From Lytechinus pictus (Eukaryota): DNA of 64,000 nucleotides. Of this stretch, positions 2,081 through 47,763 are shown one piece after another; position 1 is the first letter of the stretch, and the number at the start of each line of letters is the position of its first letter. The position numbers were made by a program, and so were the translations under genes. Under the pieces are notes generated by a model. That model saw nothing but the letters and a program-made list of their open reading frames with translations. It was not told the DNA's origin and made no database searches. The DNA is taken from contig NC_087250.1 in assembly GCF_037042905.1 (NCBI RefSeq), positions 18,354,001 to 18,418,000 on the forward strand, read 5' to 3'.

Positions 2081-2472
2081 TAGGCGGTGCTGCACCATCC
2101 CGAGTTTGCTCAACCTCGAGATTTTAGCCCGATCGGCCCTCTTCGTGATCAATCTCAAGATTCAAGAAACCCCGTCTCCACCATCCAGAAGAGCGATTCC
2201 CGCTCGAGCGAGGCAACAGGCCCGAAATTCCGAGCATGCGCACTTTCGGATCTTGGAGTTTCAACGGCGCGCGCTTTTGAATAACTTCCCGCGATAGGCA
2301 ATCAATGTACATACTCCTTTCACTGGCAGGCTTTCGCCGAATTCGACCGGTGTTATGCAACAATCCTCTCGCTCGGCCGCGCTCAGCGAGTGAAGAAGTG
2401 ATGTATTCTTCGTTAAATGATGGTTTTAATGTCATGGCGGAGAAGGAGGCAACGCTCACATTTTGCGAAGTG

Positions 2473-8063: not shown

Positions 8064-11000
8064 TAGTCGATTTGACATTTTCCGAACCTAGAAATTTTCT
8101 TTCTGATGAAGTTTTTTTCTTGATTCGTGTTCCTATGGGGTCCTAGAACAAATTCAGCTTGGTTGCCCAAAGTTGCCGTTTGGGCAATTTCGCTAATTTG
8201 CATAAATCCAAAATGGCCGCCAGATGCCATCTTGAAAACCTAACTTTTGAACCCCTTTCCACAAAATGATGAGTAATGACTCGTTTTAGGGGTTTAGAGA
8301 TGTGTAGAACCGATTTCTGGAATCGTTTTCGCAATATAAGGTCATCTTCAGGTCAAATCCAAGATGGCCGCCAGATGCCATCTTGAAAAATTAAAGTTGA
8401 ACCCCTTGCCCCAGAATGATGAGTAATACCTTTGTTTAGGGTTTTTTGGGTGTGTAGAATCCATTTATGCTGTCTATTTTGCTATATAATGTCATCTTCA
8501 GGTCAAATCCAAGATGGCCGCCATATAACGCCATCTTGAAAAATCAATTTTTTAACCCTTTGCCCCAGAATCCTGAATAATAACTCTTTCATGAGTCATT
8601 TGGTATGTTGATTCAATTTATGCTGTAATTTTGCCTAAAAGGATAATCTTCAGATCAAATCCATGATGGCCGCCAACAGCGATCTTGAAAAAAATTACTT
8701 TCCGAGGCTTATGCATGTAAGAGCTAATGTAAAGGGATTTCAGTAAGAATACCCATTTCTTGTATTCTCAATTTTTAGTATAAGGGGAAGTCACATCTGA
8801 GATGTCAGTTTTCGACATTAACTGCTCACCTTAGAATGAATCCTCTTTAGGTTTGGGCTATGATCCATTTCGCGTGCATATTTATTGTTTTTAATGTCCA
8901 TCCATACTTTTGTACTGAAGAGGCTTTAGAGTCTTATTTGAATTTGAAAGTGTTTTCTCAATATTTTTTTCTAAATCAATGTGTCCAATGATTGGTAGGC
9001 ATCAGTTCCCCTTTTAATAAAACACGATGGTGTAGCGCTAGGTCTTACAATTTCGAGAGTGACTGTAGAGCTCCACCCTAGAGTGGCAGTATCTATAGCA
9101 AATGTGTACAGATGAAGGAGGATGGCGCTGAGACATGTTTAGATAGAAATGCTGCCCTAGCCTTCCTCCTAGGTCTTTGGTCTGCCAATTTAGCATACCG
9201 ATTATTTTCTGACGTCTTGACCCCTTTACTTATACGTAGCTCTCCATAGAATGGCGACTATCATCTACATCTTCACAGGTGTTCTTGTCTATGCCGGCAA
9301 GTTTTATGTCACATTTGCAGGTGTCTCTATAACGGAGGTGTGATCTACCGATGGGGGTGAGACCAATCACACAGCTCACCTTACCTTGGCGACCTTACCT
9401 TGGCGAATCCAAGAAAGGATTCGCCAAGGTTTCATGCGGCGAACATGTCCCAACCACTTGAGGTGACTTTGACTATAAGGAGCGAGAATAAGCTGGGGAT
9501 GCCAGCACTTACACTGAAGGGCGTCTGTATTTTTCACTTTGTCCTGCCCTTTAATGTGCATGATACGTCCGAGGTAGCTGACATGGAAGGTGTTTAGCCG
9601 CTTTTCTTGGTCGGCGTACGTTTTCAAGGACTTACTTCCGTACAGGAGCTTGGCCATGACTGACAGAATTTACTATTCCGGTGCTTATATACTTGTCCAG
9701 TGAAAGGGAGCTACATGTATGTAGTCGATCCAAGGTAGGTGAGGAGTCCACCACAAACAGACGAGTGCGTGCTGTTGATATAGATATCTGGAGGACAGTC
9801 AGTCTTGAGTCGATCAGGATTTCTGTCTCACAGGCTGATGGGTGATCCAAACTCCTTACATGCACAGGACAGGCAGCTGTTATGTATGACTAGGTCTTGT
9901 ACTCTCACCTCTTGAGAGGCAGGGGCGACATCGTTTCCGTACAACATTTCACGAATGAGATCCATCCTGACCATGGAACAGTCTTGGGGGAGCCTATCTT
10001 CTGCAGGAGGCTAAATAGTGCACTCCTGCTGACCAAGTCAATGGCTCTTGTCAGGAGGAAAAGTCCAATGATAATTATAAAGAAAGTTAATAAGTTAACT
10101 AATTTTTTGAAAAAATACGGAGTGATCACTTTTTATTTCAAATAATACTTTAAAGTCCTTTCACTGGAAAAGTATGGTTGGACAGAAATAAAAAAAGGAT
10201 TAGAACTCCTGAAATCATAGCCAAAGCCTTGAATGGTTTCATTCTAAAGTAAGCGGTTAATGACGAAATCTATCAACCATCTGATCATCTTAGACGTGAC
10301 TTGACCTCGAACTAAAAATGGAGTGATTAAAAGAAATGAATCATTCTCACTGAAATCCCCTTACATGAGCTCCCATACATAATAGTAACCTTATTAGGGA
10401 GAGTACTTCTTCAAGGTTCGATAGTCTCGGGAAATATATATTTTTTCTTAATATGGCGTTTAGCGGCCATGTTTGATTATTTTGACCTGGAGATGATGAT
10501 CATGATATATTGTAAAATTATTTAGAGAAATGGAATCAACATACCAAATAACTCGCGAAAAGAGGGACAAAAACGTGAGAATTAATAAAAGAAATGAGTA
10601 TTCTCATACTGAAATCCCTTTACATAAGCTCTTACACTTATAAGCCACGGAAAGTAATTTTTCAAGATGGCGGTAGGCGGCCATATTGGATTTGATCTGA
10701 AGATTATCCTTTATGCAAAATTACAGCATGAATTGAATCAAACATACCAAATGACTCACGAATAGAGTTATTATTCATGATTCTGGGGCAAATGGTTCAA
10801 AAGTTGATATTTCAAGATGGCGTCATATGGCGGCCATCTTGGATTTGACCCGAAGATAACATTATATTGCAAAATAGAAAGCAGAAATGGATTCTACACA
10901 CCCCAAAACCCCTAAACAGAGGTATTACTCGTCATTCTGGGGCAAGGGGATCAAAAGTCAATTTTTCAAGATGGCATCTGGCGCCATCTTGGATTTGACC

Positions 11001-11301
11001 TGAAGATGACCTTATATTGCAAAAATGGTTCCAAAAATCGGTTCTACACACATCTAAACCCCTAAAACGAGTCATTACTCATCATTTTGTGGAAAGGGGT
11101 TCAAAAGTTAGGTTTTCAAGATGGCATCTGGCGGCCATTTTGGATTTATGCAAATTAGCAAAATTGCCCAAACGGCAACTTTGGGCAACCAAGCTGAATT
11201 TGTTCTAGGACCCCATAGGAACACGAATCAAGAAAAAAACTTCATCGGAAAGAACATTTCTAGGGTGGTGTATTGAGCCTATAGGACTGTCAAATCGACT
11301 A
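8064..11301. mobile_element. 3238-bp non-autonomous TIR DNA transposon (TAGTC...GACTA termini, 3-bp TSD; Academ-like)
   Basis: Perfect 14-bp TIR tagtcgatttgaca/tgtcaaatcgacta and ~700-bp imperfect inverted arms with 150-bp subrepeats. TSD AGA (8061-8063/11302-11304); empty site acaataAGAgagg in copies 1, 2 and 4. Confidence 0.9.
9200..10065 (-). mobile_element. Degenerate RTE-clade LINE RT fragment inside the 8064-11301 element
   Basis: Minus-strand peptides IDLVSRSALFSLLQKIGSP (KAFD region), IREMLYGND (decayed YADD) and LLYGSKS..YADQEKRLNTFH...LKWLGHVRRM. Frameshifted. Confidence 0.8.
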
Positions 11302-13067
11302 AGAGAGGAAAAACTATAGGAAATAAGGGGGATGTTTTTAATCGATTGTAATCTTTAATTAATAATAGATTATATCTAATGCAGTATCTTTTTATTTCTT
11401 TCATTACGTAGTATTAACAAAGAGTCCAAAACGACAGTATGATGAAGGTTAATATAAATTTAAGTACAATTTATCAAATTTGTGTCCATTTTTGCGGAAA
11501 AGACAATTAAATATCGATATTTTGCTCTTTATGAAGTTTTACTTTATCATAAACTTGTTTATTTTTTTCCTTCATAATTATATACAATAAAAAATTTACT
11601 ATTGAAACAAGTATTACTGATAGAAAATAAAAGTTTAAAAAATTTTGATAAGGGAAGATTCTTTCATTCTCCCTTTAAAGGTAAATTCCAGTTTTGGTAA
11701 GGATCTCAAAATGACTTTTTACATAATCCAATCTAATGACCACCCAAGTGTCTGTTTGTATGAATAAAAAATATGTGCCAAAGGATTCTGGAAGAAATTG
11801 TGTAATTGCTGAGAAATAAGCAAAATAAGCGCGGATTCGGGCACTTCCGTCGGGTCTTTATTCCAGCAATAATAATATAGGCGGTGCTGCACCATCCCGA
11901 GTTTGCTCAACCTCGAGATTTTAGCCCGATCGGCCCTCTTCGTGATCAATCTCAAGATTCAAGAAACCCCGTCTCCACCATCCAGAAGAGCGATTCCCGC
12001 TCGAGCGTAGTCTAGTTCTAGACGATATTAAACGAATCTATTTGCACCGCGATATACGTTCTATTCCGTGCGTACGCCCAGCCGAGTGTGCGCGCAAAAC
12101 CGAGAACCTGTACTCCGAGAAATATTAAACGAATCTATTTGCACCGCGATATACGTTCTATTCCGTGCGTACGCCCAGCCGAGTGTGCGCGCAAAACCGA
12201 GAACCTGTACTCCGAGAAAATATCGTCTAGAACAGTTGCTCAGCGGTGACGTCACTCCCTCAGATTTTTGAGGGAAAGTCGTTAAAAGTGGACACGCCTC
12301 CCGTTCAGCCACTAGTCTTTGTTAACAGCAAGGAAGATTACTGGGTTGAGAAATATGGTGTGATCTACCGATGAAATGAATATCAATTACCTAAAAAGGG
12401 ACTTTTTGTTATAAATAATTGATAAAAGAAATCAAATTAAACACACAAAAACATAAAAAATGAATCGTATCGTATATGTTTCCCCTGATACCTACAACAT
12501 TGGTTATAAGCGTAGACTATCGTATGGCATACATAATCAATCGGATCGCACAAAGCAGCACAACATAAGCCATAGACTTGTGTACAGTACCGTGCTGTTG
12601 TATCAGGGAGACTCCCAATTCCCTGGTTGTATTGTGTATTGTATACAGCGCGCGGTTTTCAAATTCATTTTCTTGCGATCTTCAAAGTCGTTATTTCCAA
12701 CTGTTTAGACATATGCATGATGGAATCTCTGACAGCATGACGTTCATTTCCCGTCGCCATCACACCATATATGAAAAAACAAACGAAGATAAGTGATCTA
12801 GACCTCAATTTGTATGCACTAGCTGATTTGGTAAACACGCAAGAAACTGAATTTATTATATAGAATTAGGTTTATTCATTATTTTCACTTCAAGAACAAA
12901 AAACAGTTGAATTGACAACTGATTTAGTCCATTAGATATTCTTTGCTACATCTTATCTCATTAGAAGGGAGACATATCATTCACACTTGTATGAAAAAAT
13001 GAAATAATTCTGATTCCATGTAATAACACAAGAAACAGGATAGTGGGGATGTGAAATCTTCAACCCA

Positions 13068-13387
13068 CATGGGCGGAAATCCCAGAGGGGACAGGGGGAC
13101 GTGTCCCCCTTGAAAAATAGTAGGGGGACACAATATCAAATGTCCCCCTACTATTTTGGTCTTTCATGGAGAAAAATACATCACTTCACAATAGAAATAA
13201 TACATGTATTTTGGACTAAATGACCTTATATTTTGGGTGAAAACCCTTTTTTGTGGGGGGGGGGGGAGGTTGTCAAATTTTGTTAGGGTTAAAATGTCCT
13301 TACATTTAGGGTGATAACCTTTTTTTTGTTTGTCAAATTTTACAGGCCCGCGGTACCCCTACATTTGAGGACAGATTTCCGCCCATG
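13068..13387. mobile_element. hAT-like MITE (320 bp)
   Basis: TIR catgggcggaaatc/gatttccgcccatg; 8-bp TSD TCAACCCA (13060-13067, 13388-13395). Confidence 0.88.
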
Positions 13388-14225
13388 TCAACCCACCTAT
13401 TAAATATATCAATGACGACATGCATATCACCATTTTCATAAAATATTGCTAAACTTTAGAATTAAATAACTTAACTATTTGTTATCAGATTTTCATAAAA
13501 TGTATTTAATTCGAAAAAATGTATTTAAAGTATACACACAAAGAAAATTCACGAAAGTGATGATTATAGACAAATTATATATGAATGGAAAGGTCTTGTC
13601 TTTTTATACACAAATATGTCACTAAAAAGTCTTATCGATGTCGTGGAAATGCAAGAAATGAAATTATTAGAGACCATTCTAAGCCCCCCAGCCGCCCCCC
13701 AGACCGACAGTTCACGCAGTGAAAACAGTCGAGAATAATGACGTCACACAATAATCGAGCTCATCATCCCTCTGTGCATAATACACTGAATCACCTTACT
13801 GACCTCTTCAATATCTTCCGAATTTACCGTTTTCTTCATGTAATGTGACATCCGAATTCTGTTTTCGACAACTTCAGACTATAAGGGAACCAGAACTGTG
13901 TTATTTTGCCCGTTTTTTATTGAATTGTGAACTGGAAAGATCGATTTTGTCCACTCGACAGTCTTCGTTGTGTTGCTCTACTAACTATTGAAAAACTCCA
14001 AGCTGCACGGTCCCATTCACTTGCTCCCGATGCATGTTGCAGGCTACGCTGTTTGATCCAGTCAAAAGTCAAGGTAAGCATGTTTGGAAACTGTACTTGT
14101 TCTGACGATGCATTCAGGTCAGATGACAGATACAGATCTGATATAAGTTTAGAATCATGCATTTTGGCATAACTACTATTAAAATTAAAAAGTTTTTATT
14201 TTAGAAATAATGTTTTTGTACAATT

Positions 14226-14833
14226 CCACCCAAGGCAAGGGTTCATTACATGCCACGCACAGAAAAATCAAGCCATAGAAGTCGTGTGTTGTGGACCCAA
14301 GAAGTGAGATCCCAGACGCCTCCAGGCTAAGCACGCGCGACCCACTAGTTAGAAATCCACTGCCAAACGCGGTTCGTGGTGCGGGGTTAGTATACTTAAT
14401 ACGTGTGAGTGGCACAATTCCAGCAGATTTTTTCTTCAGATTTCTAAAACTGGTCAGGACTCAGGCAGGCAATTAAATTATTTAGGAGCACTGAGTGGTA
14501 TGGACCATGGCTGAAAATCTGCTGTTTCAGAGGAATGTTTAAGTTTTTATTATACACAGAATTATATCACCATGATGCCGATGTCATGAAGCCAGACAAA
14601 TTTTCAGCAGTGATTGATTCCTGGCCAAAATCACTCACACGTATTGCGAGGTTAGTATTAGTATACTACTAGTACGTATTGCGAGGTTAGTATTAGTATA
14701 CTAACCACGAACCGCGTTTGGCAGTGGATTTCTAACTAGTGGGTCGCGCGTGCTGGGATCTCACTTCTTGGGTCCACGACTTCTATTGCTTGAATTTTCT
14801 GTGCGCGGCGGCATGTAATGAACCCTTGGGTGG
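14226..14833. mobile_element. Foldback/MITE-like element with ~170-bp inverted arms
   Basis: gggttcattacatgcc...ccactgccaaacgcggttcgtggt pairs with accacgaaccgcgtttggcagtgg...ggcatgtaatgaaccc. No clear TSD. Confidence 0.65.
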
Positions 14834-14941
14834 GCCAAAATTAGAGTCTGGTGTTTCTTTCTGATTAGAGTGTTGCTGCATATATGTATGCGTAATGCCT
14901 TCAACAATGAAGATAAATGCAATCTTTGTAATGACACAGAG

Positions 14942-15132
14942 ACTCAGAGAGCACCGTACCTCAAGTGATGTTCGTGTAGTCTCCACTTCACTACTGGAGT
15001 ACTGCTACAGCCTACACTACGCTACACACTTACCCGGGTAGGTGTGGCGTACATGTACGGTAGTGTAGCGGTAGTGAAGTGGAGTGGGGCCTACACAAAC
15101 ATCACTTGAGGTAGAGCACCAGTGTTCTGAGT
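14942..15132. repeat. ~190-bp imperfect hairpin (probable small MITE)
   Basis: tacctcaagtgatgttcgtgtag pairs with ctacacaaacatcacttgaggta, centred on tacccgggta. Confidence 0.55.
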
Positions 15133-17859
15133 GGAACTTTTCAGGTGTCTAAACCTACTATCATTTGTTGTTGACCGGGAATTACATGCCACCGCACGTC
15201 ATCAATCATCACGATAATTAAATTCATACTTTGATTTGATTATTTAAACTATTTCTTTTTTTCTCTCTTCTACACACAGATCTGCACAATTGCTAACTCT
15301 GGTGACTTCTGGTCTCTGCTTGCTACCTCAATCTGGGAGATTCCATCATGTCCTTTTACTATGATTTGGATATAGCCATTTTTTTCTTCACTCTTTCCAG
15401 GACCTACGGTTTGCAAGTTGTGGAATGATAATGATACAAAAGAAAAAATTTCTTTATCAATCTTGGAAACAATTTTGAGCACAGTTTTGGAGAGAACTAA
15501 GAAATTTTACTCGGACAGGAATACAGCTTGTCAAAAATAATAACACACAATTTAAAACGAAAGAACAATTTTAATGTTACTAGGGCATTTTGCGAGAAAT
15601 GTTATACTCAATCACACGTCCCAAATCAAGGGAAAGTCCTTTGATTAAACATGTAGTTGAATTGCGATTGCAACTCGACCTTATTACGCTTGAATTTGAA
15701 TTTAAGACTTACGCTTGATTTGCAATTGAACATAAGTTTCTTGCAGTGCCCCATAATTATGTTTTGTTATCAGATATTTAACGTGCTGATTTTTCTCGAA
15801 AGGTATAATATATTTGTCCTTTTAAACGGTATTTGAATATGGGTACGCCTTTTATTTGTTTTCCACAATATTTATTGCATGTATGAACAGAAGTGAAATA
15901 TTTATTGTGAAGCACTGTGAATGTTGTGTGATGGTTCATCATCAGACTGAAAGCCTGGTGGATGTGAGGAAGTGGCCTGGATGAAAGAAAAGTGAACATG
16001 TGTCCAATTACTGATTTGCATATTCTAAGACAATTTTGTTTCTGGATAAATTTTGCTATGCATTCCCTACATTAAAAGTAAAGGAGAAGTCCACGCAATC
16101 AAAAATTCATTTGAATTTAAAGAAAAATAACAAGATATTGCAGGAAATTTCATAAAAACTTTGATTCAAATTTATATAATTACTATTTTAACAGTTCCGT
16201 AAATATAACCTATTGTGATCAGATGAAGAGTTTCCTATCGTCAAATCTGCAAAGAATAAAAAACAAAATGCCACAAAAAATAGAAACGAATGTGATGTGA
16301 GTGACAACTCTAATTTGCATATCATTGTTTTGTGTATATGACTGTTTTGAGTAAAAACAACAAGGGAAATCACTCTATTCAAATAATTTTTAGTTGATGT
16401 GGACTTGACTTTTAACTCTACCCCTCCCATCCCAAATAAGAGTAGAAATAATCTAATCAAGAACTTGAAAATCAAAAGCAGCAATTAAGAAGCAAGATTT
16501 GATAAATACAGGTCTGAATAGAATTTCACAAGAAAATAAAAAGAGAAAAAAAAGATGGGTAGGGACGGGGAAGGAATTAAAAAAAAATACCCAGAAAAAA
16601 AAAATCCGAGTTTCGAACTAGGGTCCTCGCACATGACAAAACAATGGCCAACGCATTTGGCCACAGACCATCGCCCTAACAGGAAGGCATTTTTAAGATA
16701 TATGAAAGAAAGTCCGCTCGCCGCTGTTTCCTAATAATGCTTCGGCAATTCAACTGCAATTTCAGTCATTTCGCGATGGATATTGCCGTGTTTTTTTTGT
16801 GATTCCTGACTTTGCTACTTAATAAAATTTCATAATTTTTGTTCAGTCATAAAGAATAATGTCTATGCTTTATATTGACTATAACATTAATGTGACGCAA
16901 GTGTGATTTCTACGTGAAAATATGCTTTGTTTATTCACCTATATTTCTTGAAAAAAAAAAAAAATTCTAAGCTAAATATCGGTCACCAAAATACGTTAAA
17001 TGTGCATTTTTTTTCACTGTTCAGTAAATTCAAACTTTTATCTATATAACAAGACCAATCTTAAGAGGAATAAACAATTCTAAGAGCAAAAAACGCTGAT
17101 TGGAAAGATCGTCTCCAATGGGCTGCTGTCAGCTCAGCTGCTCACTGCTCATTGTGTGACGTCACTCAGCTGGAGCTCGCAAGAGGACCGGTGGAAGGCA
17201 GAAATATGGCATGAAAATAAATCATTTTTGAGAGCTGATTTCTGCAATCTCTGATCACTATTTTGAAAAGTGAAGTTATATATCTGATTAGTAATACTTC
17301 CCCTTTACAATGATGACCACATAAAGTCATTATAAAATACTTTTGATTCTTTGGATGTATACTTTAATATACATATTTTCAGCCCGAAGTACCTCCAAAA
17401 CAAGCTGTGTATCTGAATAAACATGCGTGCGCGTGTTTAGAGTTAGACCTAATATCTGGGCATTCTAAATACACTTTTTTTATTATAAAAATCACTAATG
17501 CGAGCGCGAAACGCGAGGAGAAAATATTTGATATTCCGATCTGAAAAAGGGGTGAATTTTAACACTATTTTAAGTACTGGAAAGGAAAATTCTGAAGGGG
17601 GGATGTTATTGGAATATGTAAAAGACTATGAAAACGATTTGCGATTGTCGGATGTGATAATTATGTACATTATAACATATTTAAAAATATACAGGGAGGA
17701 ACCTGATTTTCGTGGGGGTGCTGCCTATGGAAAATAATACACGCAGCACCCCCAGGAAAATTTCTGGGGATGCTTTAGTACCCCAGCACCCCGCTTCCCA
17801 GGTCCATGCTTGCCAAGTGCTAAAGAATATTCTTGCATTGATTTCATGGACGGGTTTGG

Positions 17860-18803
17860 TAGACTCAATCGCCAAAAAGGCTAATTCACGCTTGAAATTT
17901 TTGTATAGATATCAAACCTGTTTGAATATGAAGTCTAGACGTATTTTATGCTTTGCGTTAATACAATGTTTATTCGACTATGCTAATGCGGCTTGGTACG
18001 GTAGTCTGGGTGTTAATACGGATATGAAAAAGCTAAGAATAATTCAAAATAAAATTGTGAGATATATAAATGTTTTAGGACCAAGAGCACATGTCGGATA
18101 TAATAAACTTGAAAAGGCAGGATTGCTTTATGTAGATCACAGGTCACAACAATTAGTAAATACACCACGTGCATAAAATATTCTATTCGGATAAATTAGA
18201 TCATTATATAGCAAATAATTCCACCCATGTATCAAATATCCATAGGTACGATACTTGAAATAGTAATTTTAATTTCGTATTACCAAAACGTGAAGGACAT
18301 ATTGGAAACACTTTTTATTTTAATGGCATCCAATCTTGGAATGCTCTTCCTGAAAAATAAAAGCCGTTAAATTCTTTTGTCAATTTAAGAGTGCATTAAA
18401 AAATCACCTAAAACTTGAAGCTGCCCAAGAACAGCATTACCAGTAAAATAACACATTTTGTACAGTTGGTTTCTACTATTGTAGATAATGTATACATTAG
18501 GGTATGTTAAAATATAATCTTGTTTCACATATTAGGAAGATTATTGTTTGCTTCAGATGTTTGCAAATTATATGACTGATGGATATTTTTGTATGTATTT
18601 TATTTTATTTTTTCCCCCAATATTCCAGTACTTGTCGTAGTTTATATTTTTTGTTACGATATGTTAATGTTTTATACTAACTATAGGACCCCATTGGAAA
18701 TAAGCCTTTCGGCTTTCATGGGCTATCCTGTCAAGGTATTTCCTCAATTTCATTGTAATCTCCTGTGATATTCTTGACGGATAAAATCAATCAATCAATC
18801 AAT
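17860..18803 (+). mobile_element. 5'-truncated L2/Crack-type LINE (RT C-terminus, 3'UTR and (TCAA)n tail)
   Basis: ORF 17712-18176 contains KKANSRLKFLYR...LIQCLFDYANAAWY...KLRIIQNKIVRYI. 3' stem-loop region at 18686-18730 and tail ataaaatcaatcaatcaatcaat at 18781-18803. Confidence 0.82.
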
Positions 18804-19708
18804 GTTCATTTCATGGCCTGCCGACGTCGGAGTCGAGCGTAACAGCGCTCGTTTCGTATCCCTTCCGCCCTTTTCAGTATTCGGACAGTATATACCTTTT
18901 AATTTCCGGACAGCTGGCAAAACACGCGCGCGCGCTCATTATCGATACTATTGTTTTATTTTTTATGAAGTGCGACGATCGATGGAGGGGTCTTCTTTGT
19001 TTTAATTTAAATAAAGGGGTGGATGAGCTTATTAATTGTTTGCTTTTATTTAAATTATGATCTTATTGATTCAAATTATAAAGGGGGCTTCATTGTTGTT
19101 TGTTTTTATTTCATTTCTTATTGAATAAATTATTCATAGTGATTGAAATGATAAGGGGGGGGGGCTCTTTTTATTTATTATATTTTTTATTCTTAGTAAA
19201 TAATGATAAAAGGGGAGAAACATGGCTTGTTAATTCCGTATTTAAAAAAAATCTCATTCTTATAGAGATTGGATTCAATAATAGCATTGCTTTATTCTTT
19301 GTTGTTTTTTATCTTACTTTTCATTTTGTGATTAGAATGATAAAAGGATGAGGCGGGGCTTCTACGTTGTTTATTTGTTTTCTAATTTATTTTTATTTAG
19401 TGATTAAAATGGTAAAGGGGGAGGGTAGGCAGATGTTTGTTTTCTTAGATTTATATTTTTAGTGATTTAAATGGTTAATGATTTTTATTTTACTAATTAA
19501 AATGGTTGGTATAAGGGATGGTAGGCATGTGTTTTTTTTTACCGTTTTTTTTTTAAATTTTTCTTAGTGATTGAAATAAAATAAATTTATCATAATACAT
19601 ATAGTCATGTAAATTATTTCTTTTATATTTTTTTATTCTTAAAATTGCAATTAGCCAAAGTACCTGTTCCTGCTGCCCGCCTTCTATCTTATTCATTCTA
19701 CTTAGGGT

Positions 19709-20131
19709 TACGCTTCGTAATTCCGAAGGTTCTTTATTCCGAAGGTTCGTAATTCCAAATTGCCTATACCTCGATGTTCGTTAATCCGAAAACGTAAAAG
19801 GTTTCGTTAATCCGAACATTTGTGGCGTTATTCCGAATGTTCGTTTTTCCGAAGGTTGGATAATCCGAAAACGGAATAAGGTTTGCTGTTCACTAGGTTC
19901 GTTAATCCGAAAACGAAATAAGGTTAGTTGTTCCGAAGGTTCGTTAGTCGGAAAACGAAATAAGGTTCGTTAATCATTTCGTTTTCGGACTAGCGAACCT
20001 TCGGAATTACGAACCTTTCATTTTCGGATTAACGAACCTTCGGAATTACGAACCTTATTTCGTTTTTAGATTAACGAACCTTCGGAATATCCGAACCTTC
20101 GGAATAACGTAGCTTCGGAATTACGAATGTA
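19709..20131. mobile_element. MITE built of ttccgaaggttcg subrepeats in inverted arrangement
   Basis: ttcgtaattccgaag at the left end and cttcggaattacgaa at the right end; the subrepeats switch strand at ~19975. Confidence 0.75.
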
Positions 20132-21269
20132 TGCGGTATGCGTTTATAGTGTACTGCACACCTCTGTCCCTCCTGTCTCCTCCCCCTAACTTCCCCCTCT
20201 CTTCTAATATTATAAAACGTAATTTTTTCTCACATGATCCATCAGTTACGTTTTTGTCAAGTGCACAAAAATTGTTTGTATCTATTTTTAAACAAAATTA
20301 TTATTACGACTCAATATCTATTTGTTGTAATTTTGTAATGTAACTAAGATAGGGGCTTGCCTCTTGTACAAGCTTTGCTTTTTTCGGCAAGTCCCTCCGT
20401 TTTACTTTTAAATACAAATGTCATTTGAAATAACTTTATTTACTGAATTGTGTTACTTAAATCTATGATTATGTTAGATATATATTATATGTTGTCTTGC
20501 AGTATTTTCGACCTTGTTATGTTATGTTTATCATGTACAATTGTGAAACGGAAATAAATCTAATCTAATCAAATCTAATCAAATTAAATTTATATTAAAG
20601 TTATGAAGCCAAAATATTAATATACTACCACTATTTTTAATGTATGATGTAGTGAATTAATTATTTACAATACTGTTGTGGAACAAAAATGTCCATCATG
20701 CGGTAAATTTATCTCTTGTGTTTTTTTTTTCGCTAGGGTGGGGGGCATTTATGGTTTGGATTATGCCCATCCCCACTTAAACTGTATTTAATATATGTGC
20801 ATCTGCTTTTTCAGTTGATCAGTTGTTTATATCATATTTATTCTCGTTTTGAAAATGTCAGTGGACACACTTTGATTTATTATTCATTTATTCTGTAGCA
20901 ACAGGCCCCTCTCCTACTAAGAATAAAAATACTATTGTTTAAGATTATTATTGTTTGATATAAAGTTTATATATATGTTTTATTCTTGTGTATGTTACCT
21001 TATAAGTCCAGGTCGGGGAGGAAAGCCTGCGCCAGTAATTTCTTTCACAGGCAACTTGGACTTGTACTGTAAACATCCCTGTTCATTTTGTCATTGTAGC
21101 CTTGTAGGCCCTATATTCTCATGTAAACTGTTTAATTGTAAACTTTTTTTTGTTGAAATGCGGAATAAAATAATGATAAAGAAGAAGAAGAAAGAAGAAG
21201 AAAAAAGAAGAGGAAGTAGAAGATAACAAAAAAGCAGAAGAAAGGGAAATAAACTGAGACCTCCATTAA

Positions 21270-21869
21270 AGGACAAGTCCACCCCAACAAAAAGCTGATT
21301 TGAATAGAAAGAGAAAAATCAAACAAGCATAACGCTGAAAATTTCATCAAAATCGGGTGTAAAATAAGAAAGTTATGACATTTTAAAGTTTCGCTTAATT
21401 TCACAAAACAGTTATATGCACACCCTGTTCGGTATGCAAATGAGGGAACCGATGACATCACCCACTCATTATTTCTTTTGTATTTTATTACATGAAATAT
21501 TTTGATTTTCTCGTCACTGTCATGTGAAACGAAGTTTAATTCCTCCCTGAATACATGGAATTCCATTATTTTAACATTTTGTGGTTCAAGCAAGGGGGTC
21601 CTAATTGCCAAATTCGTAAAAAGGCAAAATTGTATAATTCAAAAAATAAAAAAACAAAAGAAATAGTGAGTGAGTGACATCATCGACTCTCTCATTTGCA
21701 TATCACTGGGTTGAGCATATAACTATTTTGTGAAAAATAAGCGGAACTTTAAAATGTCATAACTTTCTTATTTTACATCCGATTTTGATGAAGCTTTCAG
21801 CGTTATTCATGTTTGATTTTTCTCTTTCTGTTCAAATCAGCTTTTTGTTGGGGTGCATGGACTTGTCCT
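21270..21869. mobile_element. Kolobok-like MITE (600 bp, TTAA TSD)
   Basis: TTAA|aggacaagtcca...tggacttgtcct|TTAA with ~125-bp imperfect TIRs. Confidence 0.88.
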
Positions 21870-23308
21870 TTAATGGAGGTCTCATTTTATTCCCCTTTCT
21901 TCTGCTTTTTTGTTATCTTCTACTTCCTCTTCTTTTTTCTTCTTCGCCTTCTTCTTTTTCTTCTTCTTCAATCCTTTTCTTCTTCTTCTTTATCATTATT
22001 TTATTCGGCATTTCAACAAAAAAGGTTTACAATTAATCAGTTTACATGAGAATATAGGGCCTACAAAGCTACCATGACAAAATGAACAGGGATGTTTACA
22101 GTACAACACCAACATGTTATTTTTTTTTTGATTTTTTTTTTTTACATCTATCTCCATTTTTTCACCTATCAGGATTCTGCACAACGTCAAAGATGTATTG
22201 GTGTAAGAAATGTTTATCTTCCAGCCCTTCCCCCCTTTCCCACACTTTTATTTTTTTCTTAATTCTCTCTCCCCTACTCGTTACCTAATTCTCTTTCTTT
22301 TTCACTTTCTTCTCCTTTTCCTCTTCACCAGTCTTTTTCTTCTCAATTTCTCTTCGACCTCATCCCCCCTCTTTTATTTTTATATGCATGTCCACTCCTT
22401 GCATTTCCCTCCTTCATGCAGTATTACCTTTTTATTTCATCTTTCGACTAATCTTCCTTCTCTCTTGTCTTTTAATATTCAGCCTCCATTGCCTTTCCGT
22501 ATATAGGCCTACTCTACTCGTTTCTTTTCAATTTCTTCCATGCATATATTTTTTTTACTCCCTTGCAAATACCATGCAAGAAAGAGAAAACACGAAAATT
22601 TTCATAAAAATAAAAAAAAAATATTGGCCTGTCATGTACCGCTAGCACTAACTTTAATAGATAGCAAGAAATCCTTCCCTGACTCTGGCCGAGCTGAGCT
22701 GATATCCGTGTATTACATCAGGGAAGTGTTATTACATCAATCCCACATGCACAATGCATGAAGCTATGCACATTGCATGCACACAGCTGATAACATGTAC
22801 AAAACGTAAAACTATTACGTAATAGCTCCATGGTTGCACTGTTGTTCGGCGCGGTGATTGACAAGTAACTCATGCATATTTATGAAGCACTCGTCCGTTG
22901 ACCTTTGACCTCTGACGTCACCGCTGAGCAACTGTTCTAGACGATATTTTCTCGGAGTACAGGTTCTCGGTTTTGCGCGCACACTCGGCTGGGCGTACGC
23001 ACGGAATAGAACGTATATCGCGGTGCAAATAGATTCGTTTAATATCGTCTAGAATTTTCTCGGAGTACAGGTTCTCGGTTTTGCGCGCACACTCGGCTGG
23101 GCGTACGCACGGAATAGAACGTATATCGCGGTGCAAATAGATTCGTTTAATATCGTCTAGAACTAGACTACTCGAGCGAGGCAACAGGCCCGAAATTCCG
23201 AGCATGCGCACTTTCGGATCTTGGAGTTTCAACGGCGCGCGCTTTTGAATAACTTCCCGCGATAGGCAATCAATGTACATACTCCTTTCACTGGCAGGCT
23301 TTTATGAG

Positions 23309-25128
23309 CCCAGGACCAAAATCCAATTGAAACCAGTTGGATTTCCAACTGGTTTCAATTGGTTTCAATTGGTTTCAACTGGTTTCAATTGGTTTTAACT
23401 GGAATTTAACAATTTCCAGTTGAAACCAATTGAAACCAGTTGGGCAACTGGAAATCCTAACTGGAACCAGTTGGGTAACTGGAAATGACTTCCAATTGGG
23501 AATGATTTCTAACTGGAACCAGTTGAGTAACTGGAAATCCCAACTGGAACCAGTTGGGCAACTGGAAATCCTAACTGGAACCAGTTGGGTAACTGGAAAT
23601 GACTTCCAATTGGAAATGATTTCTTACTGGAACCAGTTGAGTAACTGGAAATCCCAACTGGAACCAGTTGGGCAACTGGAAATCCTAACTGGAACCAGTT
23701 GGGTAACTGGAAATGACTTCCAATTGGAAATGATTTCTAACTGGAACCAGTTGGGCAACTGGAAATCCTAACTGGAACCAGTTGGGTAACTGGAAATGAC
23801 TTCCAACTGGAAATGATTTCTAACTGGAACCAGTTGAGTAACTGGAAATCCCAACTGGAACCAGTTGGGCAACTGGAAATCCTAACTGGAACCAGTTGGG
23901 TAACTGGAAATGACTTCCAATTGGAAATGATTTCTTACTGGAACCAGTTGAGTAACTGGAAATCCCAACTGGAACCAGTTGGGCAACTGGAAATCCTAAC
24001 TGGAACCAGTTGGGTAACTGGAAATGACTTCCAATTGGAAATGATTTCTAACTGGAACCAGTTGGGCAACTGGAAATCCTAACTGGAACCAGTTGGGTAA
24101 CTGGAAATGACTTCCAACTGGAAATGATTTCTAACTGGAACCAGTTGGGTAACTGGAAATCCTAACTTGAACCATTCAGTTGTGTAACTGGAAATCCTAA
24201 CTGGTACCAATTGGGTAACTGAGATGACTTCTAACTGGAAAGATGGGTAACTGGAAATGAATTCTAATTGGAACCAGTTGGGTAACTGGAAATTATTTCC
24301 AATTGGTTTCCAATTGGAAATTTTCCAGTTACCCAACTGGATCCAATTGAAACCAGTTAATTTGCATATTATTTGCCAGTGTGCACAGATTAATGTTTTA
24401 TGAGATTAATCATCATTAACAATGTATCTATTTAATTCTTTACAATTTCAAGTACCACACTTTTTAAAGATTAGTATTTAGAATACTTAGCAGTGAAAAC
24501 CATGTTCATAAATGTTATAGATTATAATTAAAACAGATTAAAGGATAATTAGTACACCACTAACTGTTACCAAATTACATCAAATAAAAGTACATATATT
24601 TGAAGATCTTCCATATAAATATATATACATGAAAGTCTGTATTTTATCAATGCCCTTTACATTGGTATTAATAGACATATAACACTGCTTCTGTGTTGGC
24701 ATGAGAAATAGTTACTGCAAATGCTAATTAATTTGTAACTAATTAAGTTCGTTCCAACTGGAAGTTCCAATTGGATCCAGTTGGAAACCAATTGGTTTCA
24801 ACTGGTTCCAGTTGAAACCAGTTGCCTCCAATTGGTTTCAACTGGAACCAATTGAAACCAGTTGCCTCCAATTGGATTCAATTGGTTTTAATAGGGAAAT
24901 TGGAACAACTGGAACCAATTGACAACAATTGCCAACTGGTTCCAGTTGCCCAATTGGTTTTAACTGGAACCAATTGGCAACTGGTTTTCAATTGGTTTTT
25001 AACTGGAACCAATTGGCAACTGGTTTTCAATTGGAACCAGTTGTTCCAATTTCCCTATTGAAACCAGTTGGCCAACTGGTTTCAATTGGTTTTGCCCTAA
25101 TTGGTTTTAACTGGATTTTGGTCCTGGG
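23309..25128. mobile_element. 1820-bp CMC/EnSpm-like non-autonomous element (CCC...GGG, 2-bp TSD) nested in the left TIR of the foldback element
   Basis: TIR cccaggaccaaaatcca/tggattttggtcctggg; TSD AG (23307-23308, 25129-25130). The intact right TIR (reverse complement tatgaggcgccgaatg) shows the empty state. Confidence 0.9.
23430..24300 (+). repeat. Internal minisatellite: ~114-bp higher-order unit built from aactggaaccagtt palindromic monomers
   Basis: 38-codon periodicity visible in the spurious ORFs at 23430 and 23813. Confidence 0.85.
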
Positions 25129-25324
25129 AGGCGCCGAATGTACCAATATTATATAGAACAATTATTTGTTATATAATCATTATTTATTAAATAATAACTA
25201 TTATTTATATATAATTTACATTTTATTTGTAAATAACTACTATTATATAAAATATCATTTCTAATTATTTATATATAATTCCAAGTAATACTTCATTATT
25301 TGTAAATAATAATAGTTCGACATT

Positions 25325-25720
25325 CCATTATTTATAAATAATGATTATTTGTTTTTCATTATTTATAAATAATGATTATTTGTTTTTCATTATTTACAAA
25401 TAATGATTATTTGTTTTTCATTATTTATAAATAATGATTATTTGTTTTTCATTATTTATAAATAATGATTATTATTATTATTGTATTTACAAATAATGAT
25501 TATTTGTTTTTCATTATTTATAAATAATGATTATTTGTTTTTCATTATTTATAAATAATGATAAATGGTTTTTCATTATTTATAAATAATGATTATTTGT
25601 TTTTCATTATTTACAAATAATGATTATTTGTTTTTCATTATTTATAAATAATGATTATTTGTTTTTCATTATTTATAAATAATTTGTTGAGTTTTCCATT
25701 ATTTATAAATAATGATTATT
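25325..25720. repeat. 31-bp AT-rich tandem array (outer domain of the foldback arm; mirrored at ~28900-29320)
   Basis: Unit ttatttataaataatgattatttgtttttca, containing the 18-bp palindrome cattatttataaataatg. Confidence 0.88.
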
Positions 25721-28700
25721 TGTTAAATAATGAAAACGTCTACTTCATTATTTATAAATAATTTTTTCGAGTGCACCATTATTCTCATTATTTATAAATA
25801 ATCATTATTTAATGTTCGAGTTTTCCATTATTTATAAATAAAGATTATTTGTTAAATAATGAAATATCTACTTCATTATTTATAAATAATAATTTTGTTT
25901 CAATATCCCATTAATCATTATTTATAAACAATTTTTACAGTTTGCCATTATATACAAATAATCATTATTTATATACAAATAACCATTATTTATTAAATAA
26001 TGCCATTATTTATTAAATAATGCCATTATTTATTAAATAATGGAAAACTCGCTATAACATGCAAATGTGGGACCGCCCATGATATGAATATTCATGATGC
26101 GATTTCCTTTTTCGTGATTTTTCTTCACAAATTTTTGTCCATTTCCTCTTCATAATGACATTTCTTGAAGCAATTTTCTAGGGATATGGTCTGATTGTAA
26201 TATTCTTCATTTTCTATATAACTTCGTCTTCGTAGAAATATCAAAAAGTGTAATTTTATACGATTTTTCCTACAGTTCACAATCCCCATAGGCGCGCGTG
26301 TACGGTAGGGACAACCGGTGAATCGACGGAGTGCTCTTCATCGAAATACTATACGTTGGTTGGTCCCCGGAAGTGGCGGGCGGAATTTAGCCCGAATCTT
26401 AGATGGAAGTCGATCAAGTGCAGAGAGTGAAATATCAGTGTACTTGTACAGGCCCTTCTACTTTTTATAAATATTTCTTGTTGCTTTTTTTGTTAAGTTA
26501 ATTATTCCTGGTGTAGAGATAAGTTTCAGTTCTAATAATGCACTTCAAATACATTTTGGAGTGTCTGTTTGAGGCGTTTGGGGCGATTTCACCCTGGCCC
26601 CAAAATGCTCGCAACGACAATACGGGGGCATGATGACCCCTAAATTTTTAAAAACTTATTTTTCTATTGAAAATTATCACAAAATTCACCAAAAGTGTGC
26701 ACGAAAGCCTTCGTATTTCACTTTTAAAACTCCAAAAAGTGCCCAAATGACAAGCTTGGTCGCTTCGCTGTGTCGTTTTCAACTTGAGAAAGTTTACGCG
26801 TCTGCTTCCCCCCCCCCCCCCTCCTCCGAAAGAAATTATGTATACGGCCATGCTCTAAAGAGCCTGGCACATTGATTTATGTATACTTCATTTTCATTAT
26901 TTTTATCTCATTATCATCATGGCCTTACGCATAATTTTTTCCGGGGGGGGGGGGGGGTGGGGGGAGCAGGACGCGCGTAAACTTTCTCATAAAAATCTTG
27001 AAAAAGCGAAGCGACCAAGCTTGTCATTTGAGCTTGGTCGCGTCGCTGTCTCGCTTTCAAGATTTTTTTGAGAAACTTTACGCGCGTCCTAGCTGCTCCC
27101 CCCCCCCCCCCCGGTAAAAATTCTGTGTAAGGCCATGATGATAATGTGATAAAAATAATGAAAATGAAAAGTACATATAAATCAATGTGCCATATGCTCT
27201 TTTGAGCATGGCCGTTCACAGAATTTATTTCGGGGGGTGGGGGCAGACGCGCGTAAACGTTCTCAAGTTGAAAGCGAGACAGCGAAGCGACCAAGCTTGT
27301 CATTTGGGCTTGGTCCCGTGGCTGTCTTGCTTTCAAGATTTTTTTGAGAAAGTTTACGCGCGTCATGCTCCGGCCCCCCTGGAAAAAATTCTGCGTAAGG
27401 CCATGTTGATAATGAGATAAAAATAATGAAAATGAAAGTATACATAAATCAATGTGCCAGGCTCTCATTATCAACATGGCCTTCCGCATAATTTTTTCCA
27501 GGGGGGCCGGGGCCGGAGCATGACGCGCGTAAAGTTTCTCAAAAAAATCTTGAAAGCAAGACAGCCACGGGACCAAGCCCAAATGACAAGCTTGGTCGCT
27601 TCGCTTTTTCAAGATTTTTATGAGAAAGTTTACGCGCGTCCTGCTCCCCCCACCCCCCCCCCCCCGGAAAAAATTATGCGTAAGGCCATGATGATAATGA
27701 GATAAAAATAATGAAAATGAAGTATACATAAATCAATGTGCCAGGCTCTTTAGAGCATGGCCGTATACATAATTTCTTTCGGAGGAGGGGGGGGAAGCAG
27801 ACGCGTAAACTTTCTCAAGTTGAAAGCGACACAGCGAAGCGACCAAGCTTGTCATTTGGGCACTTTTTGGAGTTTTAAAAGTGAAATACGAAGGCTTTCG
27901 TGCACACTTTTGGTGAATTTTGTGATAATTTTCAATAGAAAAATAAGTTTTTAAAAATTTAGGGGTCATCATATCATGCCCCCGTATTGTCGTTGCGAGC
28001 ATTTTGGGGCCAGGGTGAAATCGCCCCAAACGCCTCAAACAGACACTCCAAAATGTATTTGAAGTGCATTATTAGAACTGAAACTTATCTCTACACCAGG
28101 AAAAATTAACTTAACAAAAAAAGCAACAAGAAATATTTATAAAAAGTAGAAGGGCCTGTACAAGTACACTGATATTTCACTCTCTCAGCTCATATGCACT
28201 TGATCGACTTCCATCGAGGATTCGGGCTAAATTCCGCCCGCCACTTCCGGGGACCAACCAACGTAGTATTTCGATGAAGAGCACTCCGTCGATTCACCGG
28301 TTGTCCCTACCGTACACGCGCGCCTATGGGGATTGTGAACTGTAGGAAAAATCGTATAAAATTACACTTTTTGATATTTCTACGAAGACGAAGTTATATA
28401 GAAAATGAAGAATATTACAATCAGACCATATCCCTAGAAAATTGCTTCAAGAAATGTCATTATGAAGAGGAAATGGACAAAAATTTGTGAAGAAAAATCA
28501 CGAAAAAGGAAATCGCATCATGAATATTCATATCATGGGCGGTCCCACATTTGCATGTTATAGCGAGTTTTCCATTATTTAATAAATAATGGCATTATTT
28601 AATAAATAATGGCATTATTTAATAAATAATGGTTATTTGTATATAAATAATGATTATTTGTATATAATGGCAAACTGTAAAAATTGTTTATAAATAATGA

Positions 28701-30567
28701 TTAATGGGATATTGAAACAAAATTATTATTTATAAATAATGAAGTAGATATTTCATTATTTAACAAATAATCTTTATTTATAAATAATGGAAAACTCGAA
28801 CATTAAATAATGATTATTTATAAATAATGAGAATAATGGTGCACTCGAAAAAATTATTTATAAATAATGAAGTAGACGTTTTCATTATTTAACAAATAAT
28901 CATTATTTATAAATAATGGAAAACTCAACAAATTATTTATAAATAATGAAAAACAAATAATCATTATTTATAAATAATGAAAAACAAATAATCATTATTT
29001 GTAAATAATGAAAAACAAATAATCATTATTTATAAATAATGAAAAACCAATTATCATTATTTATAAATAATGAAAGACAAATAATCATTATTTATAAATA
29101 ATGAAAAACAAATAATCATTATTTGTAAATAATGAAAAACAAATAATCATTATTTATAAATAATGAAAAACAAATAATCATTATTTATAAATAATGAAAA
29201 ACAAATAATCATTATTTGTAAATAATGAAAAACAAATAATCATTATTTATAAATAATGAAAAACAAATAATCATTATTTATAAATAATGAAAAACAAATA
29301 ATCATTATTTATAAATAATGGAATGTCGAACTATTATTATTTACAAATAATGAAGTATTACTTGGAATTATATATAAATAATTAGAAATGATATTTTATA
29401 TAATAGTAGTTATTTACAAATAAAATGTAAATTATATATAAATAATAGTTATTATTTAATAAATAATGATTATATAACAAATAATTGTTCTATATAATAT
29501 TGGTACATTCGGCGCCTCATAGGCTTTCGCCGAATTCGACCGGTGTTATGCAACAATCCTCTCGCTCGGCCGCGCTCAGCGAGTGAAGAAGTGATGTATT
29601 CTTCGTTAAATGATGGTTTTAATGTCATGGCGGAGAAGGAGGCAACGCTCACATTTTGCGAAGTGGGTTAACAAACGAACAATCACAATAAGTGGAATCT
29701 GTACAAAGACGAGCAATGCGTATAATCAACCCACAATTATCGTATACTGAGGCACTCAAAGAATTAAACTTAGAATTGTTATTCGACCGCAGGAAAATCA
29801 TGTGTGAAAAGCAATTCCTCCAATTGTAAAAGTTAGATCATATCTTAAATAACCTCCTTCCATCAAAGAAAGAGTATAAGTATGATTTTAGGAACAGAAA
29901 ACAATTTCCCTTGCCAACGTGTAAAACAAAGAGGTACAAACAGAGTTTTATCCCCTGGTGTCTGTACAACCTTCAATACAATGAGTTTGTTTATTACCCA
30001 GTTGAAAGGATCGAGCAGTCTCTTGATGTTATACATACATTTTTATATTTAAATATTGCGTATTCCCAGATTTGCTATCATGTTAAGTCTGTATACTTGA
30101 AAGTGATACAATGTGTAATATCTTCCAGGTTCATTTTTTATGCTCCCTTCCCCTTTTCCTCCTCCTCCTCTCTCTCTCTCTCCTTCTTTTCTTTCTTTCT
30201 TTCCTCCTTTCTTCTCCTTTTTGACCCCTTACCCTTTTTCATACTCTCCAACCCCTTTCTACTTCCTTTTTTTTCAACTTCCTTTTTTCTCTTCTTTTTC
30301 TTCTTCTGCTTCTTCATATTCATCTTCTTTTTCTTCTCCTTTCTTTTTTCTTTCTCATATTCCTTATTACTTTCTCGTCATCTCGTCCTCCTTCCCATCC
30401 TATCCTAATTTATTCTGAATGGTCTGGTTTGACCATTTATAAAGAAATGCGGTTCAGGTTCAGGTATAACATTCTACCCTTTCAAATTTGTTAAATGCAA
30501 TATTTTTTAATATTACATACATGCACAGATAAATAATTTTTATTTATATAAATATTTAGGCTATATT

Positions 30568-39641: not shown

Positions 39642-39674
39642 GTAAGTCGCGCCTAGTACTGAATTTGTTTCAAC

Positions 39675-47652: not shown

Positions 47653-47763
47653 CATCAAAGTATGTTGTGTCTGTTTCATCATCAGGGGCGGGTACAAAAG
47701 GAGGCTCCAGCTCTCTTACATGGTCCCAGTCAAGCTCATTCAGAAACTCATGCTGCTTTACAT
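47653..47763 (-). CDS. MASTL: Greatwall kinase exon (AGC C-tail [37 protein letters not shown])
   Basis: [17 protein letters not shown] tail; ag|...|gtgagt. Confidence 0.93.

Follow-up and report, generated by a model that had tools for sequence, protein, structure and literature searches.

How did 11.2 kb of DNA come to lie between matching terminal inverted repeats (TIRs), and which enzyme put it there? The question is raised by positions 12008-23170 of the window, by which is meant the whole 64-kb stretch of DNA that was analysed. An earlier note had described this segment as a transposon without a transposase, which moved recently as one unit with a stack of older debris inside, and had leaned towards hAT as its superfamily.

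The insertion and its ends

The segment is a genuine, recent insertion without genes of its own. It is flanked by an exact 8-bp target site duplication (TSD), CTCGAGCG, and the chance of an exact 8-mer at one given place, computed from the base composition, is about 3e-6. The target is a unit of a 3259-bp (3.26 kb) tandem array inside the window, and two other units of this array retain the empty site. In its flanks the filled site departs from these at 0 of 320 and 1 of 320 bases. The insertion is proved by this pair of empty sites, which lie within the window itself, and together with the TSD they rule out an assembly artefact. A TSD of 9 or 10 bp cannot be read, because the adjoining base on each side mismatches the empty site. 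The features of the target and of the ends are as follows.

2203-2210, forward strand: unoccupied target in array unit 1, where the TSD sequence is single
5463-5470, forward strand: unoccupied target in array unit 2, where the TSD sequence is single
12000-12007, forward strand: left 8-bp TSD, forming part of a 10-bp palindrome (11998-12007) that belongs to a high-copy host repeat
12008-12254, forward strand: left TIR, 247 bp, with a TAGTC tip bearing a 6-bp hairpin, a 15-bp motif, two identical 97-bp units, the 15-bp motif inverted, and a CRE-like palindrome at the inner end
22913-23170, reverse strand: right TIR, 258 bp, with two identical 108-bp units
23171-23178, forward strand: right 8-bp TSD

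The TIRs align with 247 matches, no substitution and a single 11-bp indel, the right TIR being the left one plus 11 bases at the junction of the units and otherwise the same. For a divergence of 0/247 the 95% upper bound is 1.5%. The left TIR has a GC content of 49% and a CpG observed/expected ratio of 1.9. Within each pair the tandem units are 100% identical, and they are bracketed by the 15-bp inverted motif, at 12015-12029 and 12219-12233 on the left and at 23149-23163 and 22934-22948 on the right. The distance from the tip to the inner motif is 226 bp at one end and 237 bp at the other, 11 bp apart. Both TIRs end in TGACGTCA, of which the window has 13 occurrences, many of them close to the ends of other elements. 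The perfect TSD, the near-identical TIRs, the duplication of about 100 bp with its own inverted motif in each, and the end motif had all been described in the earlier note, and all of them hold.

The TIRs have no match in Rfam, in a search over 11000-24500 that gave 42 matches with E values of 0.5 or less; only one of these exceeds its gathering score, and it is a generic hairpin that lies beyond the element.

The affinity of the ends

The termini were compared with one curated bivalve library, using the initial 400 bases of the records. The library contains 100 Academ and 662 other families, with 133 hAT families according to its main text. A TAGTC start is found in 45 of the 100 Academ families and in none of the 662 others, so that all 45 TAGTC-starting sequences are Academ, a comparison limited by the fact that the library entries listed are without Zisupton, P and helicase-labelled Academ. 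Over positions 1-11 there is one mismatch to Academ_M.mercenaria_1 and Academ_M.mercenaria_2 (both from M. mercenaria). The end thus comes under the Repbase terminus rule for Academ (any), since the tolerance for assigning a terminus is at most one mismatch over positions 1-11 (PMC4455052). The mobilising enzyme is probably of the Academ type.

The TSD fits less well. According to PMC10045372, TSDs are 3-4 bp for AcademX and 9-10 bp for AcademH, and the present TSD matches neither: its 8 bp are fixed by the two empty sites, and a ninth base does not match on either side. The ends are Academ-like, yet the element falls outside Academ as published because of these TSD lengths, and the assignment to an enzyme family is provisional. 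No description of an Academ element with 8-bp TSDs was found in the literature searched, a body that excluded the original AcademH paper and Repbase Reports. A 2020 account by Kojima is said to describe the AcademH lineage with short inverted repeats in its TIRs, and reportedly mentions non-autonomous relatives with 8-bp TSDs. The present TIRs contain short inverted repeats (the tip hairpin and the 15-bp pair). The element resembles Academ and AcademH in its TAGTC terminus, as in the curated Academ families, its long TSD and its long TIR. It differs from AcademH in the TSD of 8 bp rather than 9-10, in having no coding sequence, and in the 100-bp tandem duplication of each TIR.

A hAT or Zisupton transposase, as the earlier note proposed, is unlikely, a judgement that is independent of where the interior came from. 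The 8-bp TSD is in its favour, being usual for both hAT and Zisupton (PMC12730594) and fitting hAT as well as Zisupton/KDZ, and some hAT families do start with TAG, among them one hATw family of the library with a loosely similar tip. However, no hAT family is found among the 45 TAGTC starts of the library, and the four TAG-starting hAT families listed begin TAGGG or TAGC. The hAT consensus has G at the fifth base, where the element has C. None of 11 Zisupton/Dileera consensus sequences starts with TAG, all of these being fungal, with animal families outside the comparison. Two other long TAGTC-ended elements in the window (8064-11301 and 51350-56506) have 3-bp TSDs, and with the library counts this turns the assignment away from hAT. 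The 13-mer just inside the right TIR equals the 5' end of a fungal Dileera consensus, but it points the wrong way for a terminus and is found again at 48646, and this link was rejected.

To our knowledge there is no biochemistry for Academ, a superfamily that has received little study. An insertion this clean and recent, combining Academ-like ends with an 8-bp TSD, would bridge the classes of 3-4 and 9-10 bp, and is a caution against classing TAG ends with an 8-bp TSD as hAT by default.

Searches for relatives beyond the window were also made. The terminal 18-mer gave no match in viral contigs. The terminal 16-mer gave 90 stretches in metagenome contigs, all of them chance, because none of the 90 had a BLAST match to the element at E 1e-3, agreement over the next 44 bases never exceeded 18, and no stretch had a matching far end with a TSD. 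Translated TIR frames, used as probes for spurious ORFs of relatives, gave no match in one search and, in a second, two weak multi-stretch matches that were taken as repeat artefacts.

Contents and age of the interior

No Pfam match to a transposase was obtained in 22 interior frames, nor in the six frames translated with X at stops, in agreement with the earlier note. The interior features are listed below; where no strand is given, none was assigned. Runs X1, X3, X5 and X8 are public runs, whose contigs were read as presence only, and depth ratios were not taken as copy numbers.

12255-12850, forward strand: left family arm, with an approximate inner limit; contigs from runs X1 and X8, about 95% identical, also have it joined to the TIR
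13068-13387: nested MITE of 320 bp, which we take to be hAT-like, with CATGG ends and an intact 8-bp TSD, TCAACCCA
13529-17363: nested Kolobok-like non-coding element of 3835 bp, with TTAA on both sides, making up 36% of the interior
17809-18801, forward strand: LINE 3' end, 5'-truncated, with a broken ORF and a (TCAA)n tail
19700-20130: nested foldback of 16-42-bp repeats, with arms 65-79% alike
20576-21055: low-copy stretch, in which runs X3 and X5 each have a single contig over position 20861
21056-22112: Kolobok-type MITE (21270-21869, TTAA) within inverted-copy flanks
22601-22912, reverse strand: presumed right family arm, inner limit approximate

Recognisable nested elements account for at least 6648 of the 10658 interior bases, several with intact TSDs. 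Of the contents reported in the earlier note, a hAT-like MITE with its 8-bp TSD, foldbacks, a Kolobok-type MITE with TTAA and a LINE fragment, recognised by its relatives and put down in the note as L2/Crack, are present; the Kolobok-like element at 13529-17363 had been overlooked. This element contains foldback or MITE pieces at about 14236-14828, at 14957-15113 and at about 16075-16417, and its empty-site joint, from 13501 to 17363, is found in run X8. The LINE fragment has six relatives at 60-83% identity, three with a reverse transcriptase domain (PF00078), and itself gives a weak match to PF09004; against the PDB it has no match below E 0.19.

The age of the interior can be judged from the Kolobok-type MITE, whose flanks (21056-21265 and 21874-22112) are mutual inverted copies with 9 substitutions in 209 sites. 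The resulting divergence, 4.3%, is higher than that of the TIRs (0%) and that of the target array (0.4-1.4%), where gene conversion may have lowered the figure. Against the 9/209 of the interior, Fisher's test gives p 0.0008 for the TIRs (0/247) and 5e-5 for the nearest array flanks (3/838). This inverted duplication is therefore older than the insertion, and at least part of the interior predates it. The stack of older debris of the earlier note is thus older at least in part.

The interior that belongs to the family itself is visible in public-run contigs over about 380 bp of the left arm. The right arm has no similarity to the left arm, and its junction with the TIR is crossed by none of the listed contigs. 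An ORF in the left arm (12457-12705) has no match among longer proteins. The left arm is 5% diverged from the X1 and X8 contigs, as against about 1% between the nested Kolobok element and X1 contigs, a pattern no less compatible with an old lineage than with young ends.

How the interior came to lie between the ends

The reading that we tentatively favour, at somewhat less than even probability, is that a non-autonomous element, Academ-like at its ends, acquired repeat-rich host DNA and was mobilised in trans as a single block. It is an unusually large example of an already known kind of element. Its own parts would be the TIRs and a short arm next to each (about 0.6 kb on the left and perhaps 0.3 kb on the right), and the middle 9-10 kb would be ordinary genomic DNA, rich in repeats, that had been acquired at an earlier time. 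The likeliest route is template switching while a break within the element was being repaired, with some further nested insertions. A transposase from an autonomous relative elsewhere would pair both ends, excise the whole 11.2 kb, and join it to an array unit with an 8-nt stagger. The identity of the TIRs would mean either that the ends are young or that one was copied onto the other, as the tandem duplication common to both ends suggests. We infer both the capture of host DNA and the copying between ends, and that the interior moved together with the ends. The claim of recent movement as one unit stands firmly for the recent, TSD-making insertion; that the whole block moved is more tentative, because a short element that landed first and was filled later by repair synthesis would also have an old interior. 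The vehicle proposed in the earlier note, which would copy transposable elements and host DNA in bulk, stays hypothetical, with a single insertion and no donor locus in the 64-kb window.

This reading is supported by the recurrence of TIR plus left arm in X1 and X8 contigs, by the low-copy interior stretch, for which two runs under another organism label each have one contig about 90% alike, and by the interior having no donor locus within the 64-kb window, unlike most in-place captures of PMC8277862 (57% under 15 kb). In maize, paired ends move blocks of 10-28 kb (PMC9910405). The 8-bp TSD, as against 3-4 or 9-10 bp in Academ and 3 bp in the two other long TAGTC-ended elements of the window, is evidence on the other side, and neither a second copy nor an autonomous partner was seen in the window. 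If the block did move whole, a DNA transposon would disperse 10-kb repeat-rich pieces in an animal, far over typical Pack-TIR sizes, and nested young and old elements would relocate without activity of their own. The biological weight is modest, since the cargo is devoid of genes and a single copy is in view.

Known systems provide partial parallels. Pack-TIRs (PMC8277862) are likewise non-autonomous TIR elements with a TSD and an unrelated interior, for which gap-filling and FoSTeST are candidate mechanisms. Here both TIRs and a TSD are present and the family interior is known for about 380 bp of left arm only; the interior is about 10 kb, mostly repeats, as against a median of 224 bp, and a parental copy of at least 90% identity is absent from the 64-kb window. 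Sea urchin terms are absent from the main text of PMC8277862. In the maize Ds2/Ds-l4 compound elements and Ac macrotransposons, working ends likewise enclose kilobases of filler rich in retrotransposons, and the TSD is again 8 bp, but their ends are hAT with 11-bp TIRs (PMC3260210, PMC9910405). The ends of macrotransposons come from two separate elements, whereas no inner ends were found here. Galileo, a Drosophila foldback element, shares long TIRs with internal tandem repeats, nested elements, a 7-8-bp TSD and a palindromic target; it belongs to the P superfamily and its TIRs themselves reach kilobases, in contrast to the large non-TIR interior here (PMC4168063). KolobokP has long terminal modules with short inverted repeats of their own, but these are direct repeats of 450-660 bp that also occur solo and flank a transposase, whereas the modules here are inverted (PMC9587614).

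Growth without capture is the next reading, and we consider it somewhat unlikely. An old non-autonomous lineage would have grown by nested insertions and deletions, with conversion between the ends keeping the TIRs identical, and moved again recently. The extent of nested elements noted above agrees with this, as does the left arm, whose 5% divergence from contigs of relatives is near the age of the interior duplication, and according to PMC4168063 the tandem-repeat TIRs of Galileo have insertions that pass to both TIRs. It would, however, need at least eight insertions, as well as the inverted duplication, within 1-2 kb of core sequence while the TIRs stayed identical throughout. The low-copy stretches also count against it. 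An X3 contig is about 90% alike over 20742-21142, and the X3 and X5 runs carry another organism label (B); low-copy stretches with single contigs of about 90% in organism B may be host DNA, and old low-copy repeats would look alike.

Filling on the spot is rather improbable. A short member would have inserted and a later break been repaired from a distant template, so that the 11 kb never transposed whole. Young ends around an old interior would follow from this just as well, and it is the main route of single-copy Pack-TIRs in animals (PMC8277862); the fillers there are about 45 times shorter and mostly of nearby origin, and the window holds no donor. A bolder form of the favoured reading is more doubtful still. 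It posits an undescribed Academ lineage with 8-bp TSDs and self-renewing ends, in which the module bracketed by the 15-bp motif would be duplicated and copied from end to end, the TIRs staying identical while the interior ages; the family would shuttle different 10-kb host blocks, and the 11-bp asymmetry of the ends would be functional.

It is very improbable that a perfect palindrome of about 500 bp (the TIRs back to back) was split at its centre by a 10.7-kb insertion with TGACGTCA as duplicated target: this sequence equals its own reverse complement and so forms a direct repeat flanking the interior, but it is frequent in the window near other ends, the ends of the interior have no inverted or direct similarity (best local scores 25 and 21), and the junction of TIR and arm is found again in two runs (X1 and X8). 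Least probable of all is a composite of two solo 250-bp modules around host DNA, as in bacterial compound transposons or KolobokP ends, for which the 15-bp inverted pair of each TIR and a 3-bp direct repeat at chance level around the right TIR could speak; the left TIR and the inner modules have no flanking direct repeat, the window's two TIR modules are those of the element itself, neither with a TSD of its own, X1 and X8 contigs continue the left TIR into the same arm, and there is no inner-facing TAGTC terminus.

Two minor observations may be added. Holes in read depth (zero over 12323-12763 in X3, and over 20702-21142 and 22025-22465 in X1) were considered as a sign of separate histories of arm and middle and were discounted, the contigs indicating presence only. 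Position 23005 is G in all listed contigs of X8, X5 and X3 and A in all four units of the window, a pattern that may reflect homogenisation or a species difference.

Insertion, ends and terminal inverted repeats

By self-comparison, positions 126-32358 form a tandem array of about four and a half units of 3259 bp, 1-3.5% apart. Insertions, three large ones, are confined to unit 3; units 1 and 2 have none and therefore provide empty sites for each of them.

12008-23170: main element, 11,163 bp
12008-12254: left terminal inverted repeat (TIR)
22913-23170: right TIR

The 8-mer CTCGAGCG flanks the main element left and right. It is single at the empty sites (2203-2210 and 5463-5470), which match the element's flanks at 320/320 and 319/320 bases, so that both ends and the 8-bp length of the target site duplication (TSD) are fixed. 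Among the matches listed, contigs of two public sequencing runs (X8, and X3 under another organism label) contain the host repeat in diverged form and without interruption, with joints from 11982/11983 to 23171. The insertion is real and well supported.

The TIRs align with 247 matches, no substitutions and one 11-bp gap. At its tip each carries TAGTC and a 6-bp hairpin; a 15-bp motif follows, then a pair of identical units (97 bp each in the left TIR, 108 bp each in the right), the motif again in inverted orientation, and a short tail terminating in TGACGTCA. The right unit takes in most of the 15-bp motif, and the left junction is without 11 of those bases; the simplest history would be one duplication, then an 11-bp deletion on the left. 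There is no third TIR copy in the 64-kb window. These results bear out an earlier note on this DNA, which described an exact 8-bp TSD and near-identical TIRs, each with a tandem duplication of about 100 bp and an inverted motif.

A second insertion lies nearby:
23303-29521: 6.2-kb insertion, 6-bp TSD GGCTTT; foldback arms that are long and built of 31-bp repeats, 276-bp satellite core, 114/197/311-bp repeat array; possibly nested elements

Terminus and target site duplication

Three other features of the window have TAGTC ends:
8064-11301: 3.2-kb foldback, 14-bp perfect TIR, TSD AGA, confirmed by empty sites; 150-bp repeats bearing the CAAGATGGC motif; a non-autonomous member of the 3-bp Academ group
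51350-56506: 5.2-kb foldback, AAA on either side, 160-bp subterminal repeats; probably another Academ derivative with a 3-bp TSD
50664-50737: 74-bp element, each end a TAGTCT hairpin tip (spacers of 8 and 9), a tip design shared with the main element; borders an AG microsatellite, without clear TSD

The terminus was compared with a curated library of autonomous DDE elements (PMC10294476, supplement file 24), whose main text gives 762 families, including 100 Academ and 133 hAT. TAG starts 115 records and TAGTC 45, all 45 labelled Academ-1. Six records start with TAGTCTAG, and two have the first 11 bases of the main element with one mismatch. TAG-starting hAT records, four among those listed, open TAGGG or TAGC, and among 11 consensus sequences of fungal Zisupton or Dileera elements (PMC12730594 Table S1) none starts with TAG. 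An 8-bp TSD is described as usual for hAT and Zisupton (PMC12730594) and so fits the hAT affinity favoured previously, but the exclusively Academ-1 labels of the TAGTC records speak against it. A hAT or Zisupton enzyme, independent of the interior's origin, is accordingly unlikely, if still worth considering.

The two larger foldbacks serve as internal controls, having 3-bp flanking repeats, confirmed for the first by empty sites. The CAAGATGGC motif, common among the Academ records listed, has all 11 of its window copies in 8064-11301 and none in the main element. Tip match and controls together show that the main element has an Academ-type tip without belonging to the 3-bp kind. Published Academ TSDs are 3-4 bp for AcademX and 9-10 bp for AcademH (PMC10045372). 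The main element thus has the terminus of Academ but neither of these lengths, and the TSD of hAT but not its terminus. Judged by its sequence, we call it Academ-like and place it in no superfamily. With a long TSD, a long TIR and a hairpin at the tip, it presumably resembles the helicase-bearing AcademH lineage. The combination of an Academ-like end with an 8-bp TSD sets it apart from known kinds, as does the duplicated, self-bracketed TIR module.

Interior, related contigs and relative ages

The longest stop-free frames of the main element have 168 and 163 codons. No Pfam match to a transposase was found in 22 element frames (scanned together with 5 from outside) or in all six frames with X read at stops. 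This agrees with the earlier claim of an interior without transposase, and the stack of repeat debris claimed there is likewise confirmed.

Nested pieces of the interior
hAT-like MITE, 320 bp: intact 8-bp TSD
Kolobok-like element, 3835 bp: TTAA on both sides
MITE, 600 bp: TTAA on both sides
Foldbacks
LINE 3' end: six database relatives, 60-83% identical, three of the six with a reverse transcriptase domain

For these pieces the labels Kolobok and hAT are putative, going by TSD and end pattern. Five nested segments total 6648 of 10,658 interior bases. The interior is about 45 times as long as the median filler of animal Pack-TIRs, a departure from known kinds; gene-less, filler-carrying elements of comparable size are described in maize (PMC3260210, PMC9910405).

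With 11908-12500 as query, ten runs were listed, each with at most 0.19 of its words, and four were compared with 11000-24200 at 80% likeness (matches listed: 32 of over 221,000 pieces and 15 of 1758 joints). Among the matches listed, two contigs, both about 5% from the main element, cross the left TIR-interior junction: one of run X1 (12151-12525, 19 other letters) and one of X8 (12191-12638, 20 other letters and 9 gap letters), and none crosses the right. The left TIR is therefore part of a family with a fixed arm, and not the solo module of about 250 bp that the note had held would count against its reading. Over the nested 3.8-kb element, divergence from the X1 contigs among the matches listed is about 1% (8 in 946, 5 in 753 and 4 in 323), and X8 has an empty-site joint for this element among the joints listed. 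At position 20861 the matches listed include one contig of X3 (20742-21142, 38 other letters, 29 gap letters), one of X5 and four of X8, as expected either of host DNA conserved in a related species or of an old low-copy repeat.

Within 21056-22112, a Kolobok-type MITE stands between two sequences of about 210 bp that repeat each other in inverted orientation, as though a template switch or an alternative transposition event had overwritten one flank with a copy of its partner. This inverted duplication has diverged by 4.3% (2.0-8.2), the TIRs by 0% (95% interval 0-1.5), the array flanks adjoining the main element by 0.36% from unit 1 (0.07-1.05) and whole array units by 1.05-1.40%; Fisher tests give significant differences (p 0.0008, 5e-5 and 0.0009), although conversion between array units could make the target seem younger than it is. 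Given the younger TIRs and target, the structure was carried in and not formed here after insertion. The older interior proposed earlier thus stands at least in part, while its recent movement as one unit is only one fitting reading: later fill-in from a distant template fits equally.

Origin of the middle and other features

We tentatively favour capture followed by movement, at somewhat less than an even chance. A transposase supplied in trans would bind both ends, excise the whole block and insert it with an 8-nt stagger; the target here is close to a palindrome. The middle was probably acquired through template switching during repair, akin to proposals for animal Pack-TIRs, in which single copies are explained by gap filling and multicopy ones by FoSTeST (PMC8277862), with further nesting before or after capture. 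Because the TIRs are identical and share a derived duplication, they suggest end-to-end copying; comparable TIR remodelling is described for Galileo (PMC4168063). A single copy cannot establish a cargo-carrying family.

Nested build-up without capture is distinctly less probable. Fill-in on the spot is more doubtful again, even though a distant template also accounts for the imported older structure. A composite of solo modules is highly improbable, given the fixed arm beside the left TIR, and central insertion into a palindrome is equally so.

The window also contains:
59995-61593 (minus): 532-codon stop-free frame, serine-rich, apparently disordered, no Pfam match; probably a large host-gene exon
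39121-39645 (plus): frame that, by eye, has a stretch resembling a signal peptide and the beginning of a C-type-lectin-like sequence; no Pfam match at E 0.05; long TCA microsatellite after it
47705-48525: tandem array, about 4.7 copies of a 172-178 bp unit, 85% alike
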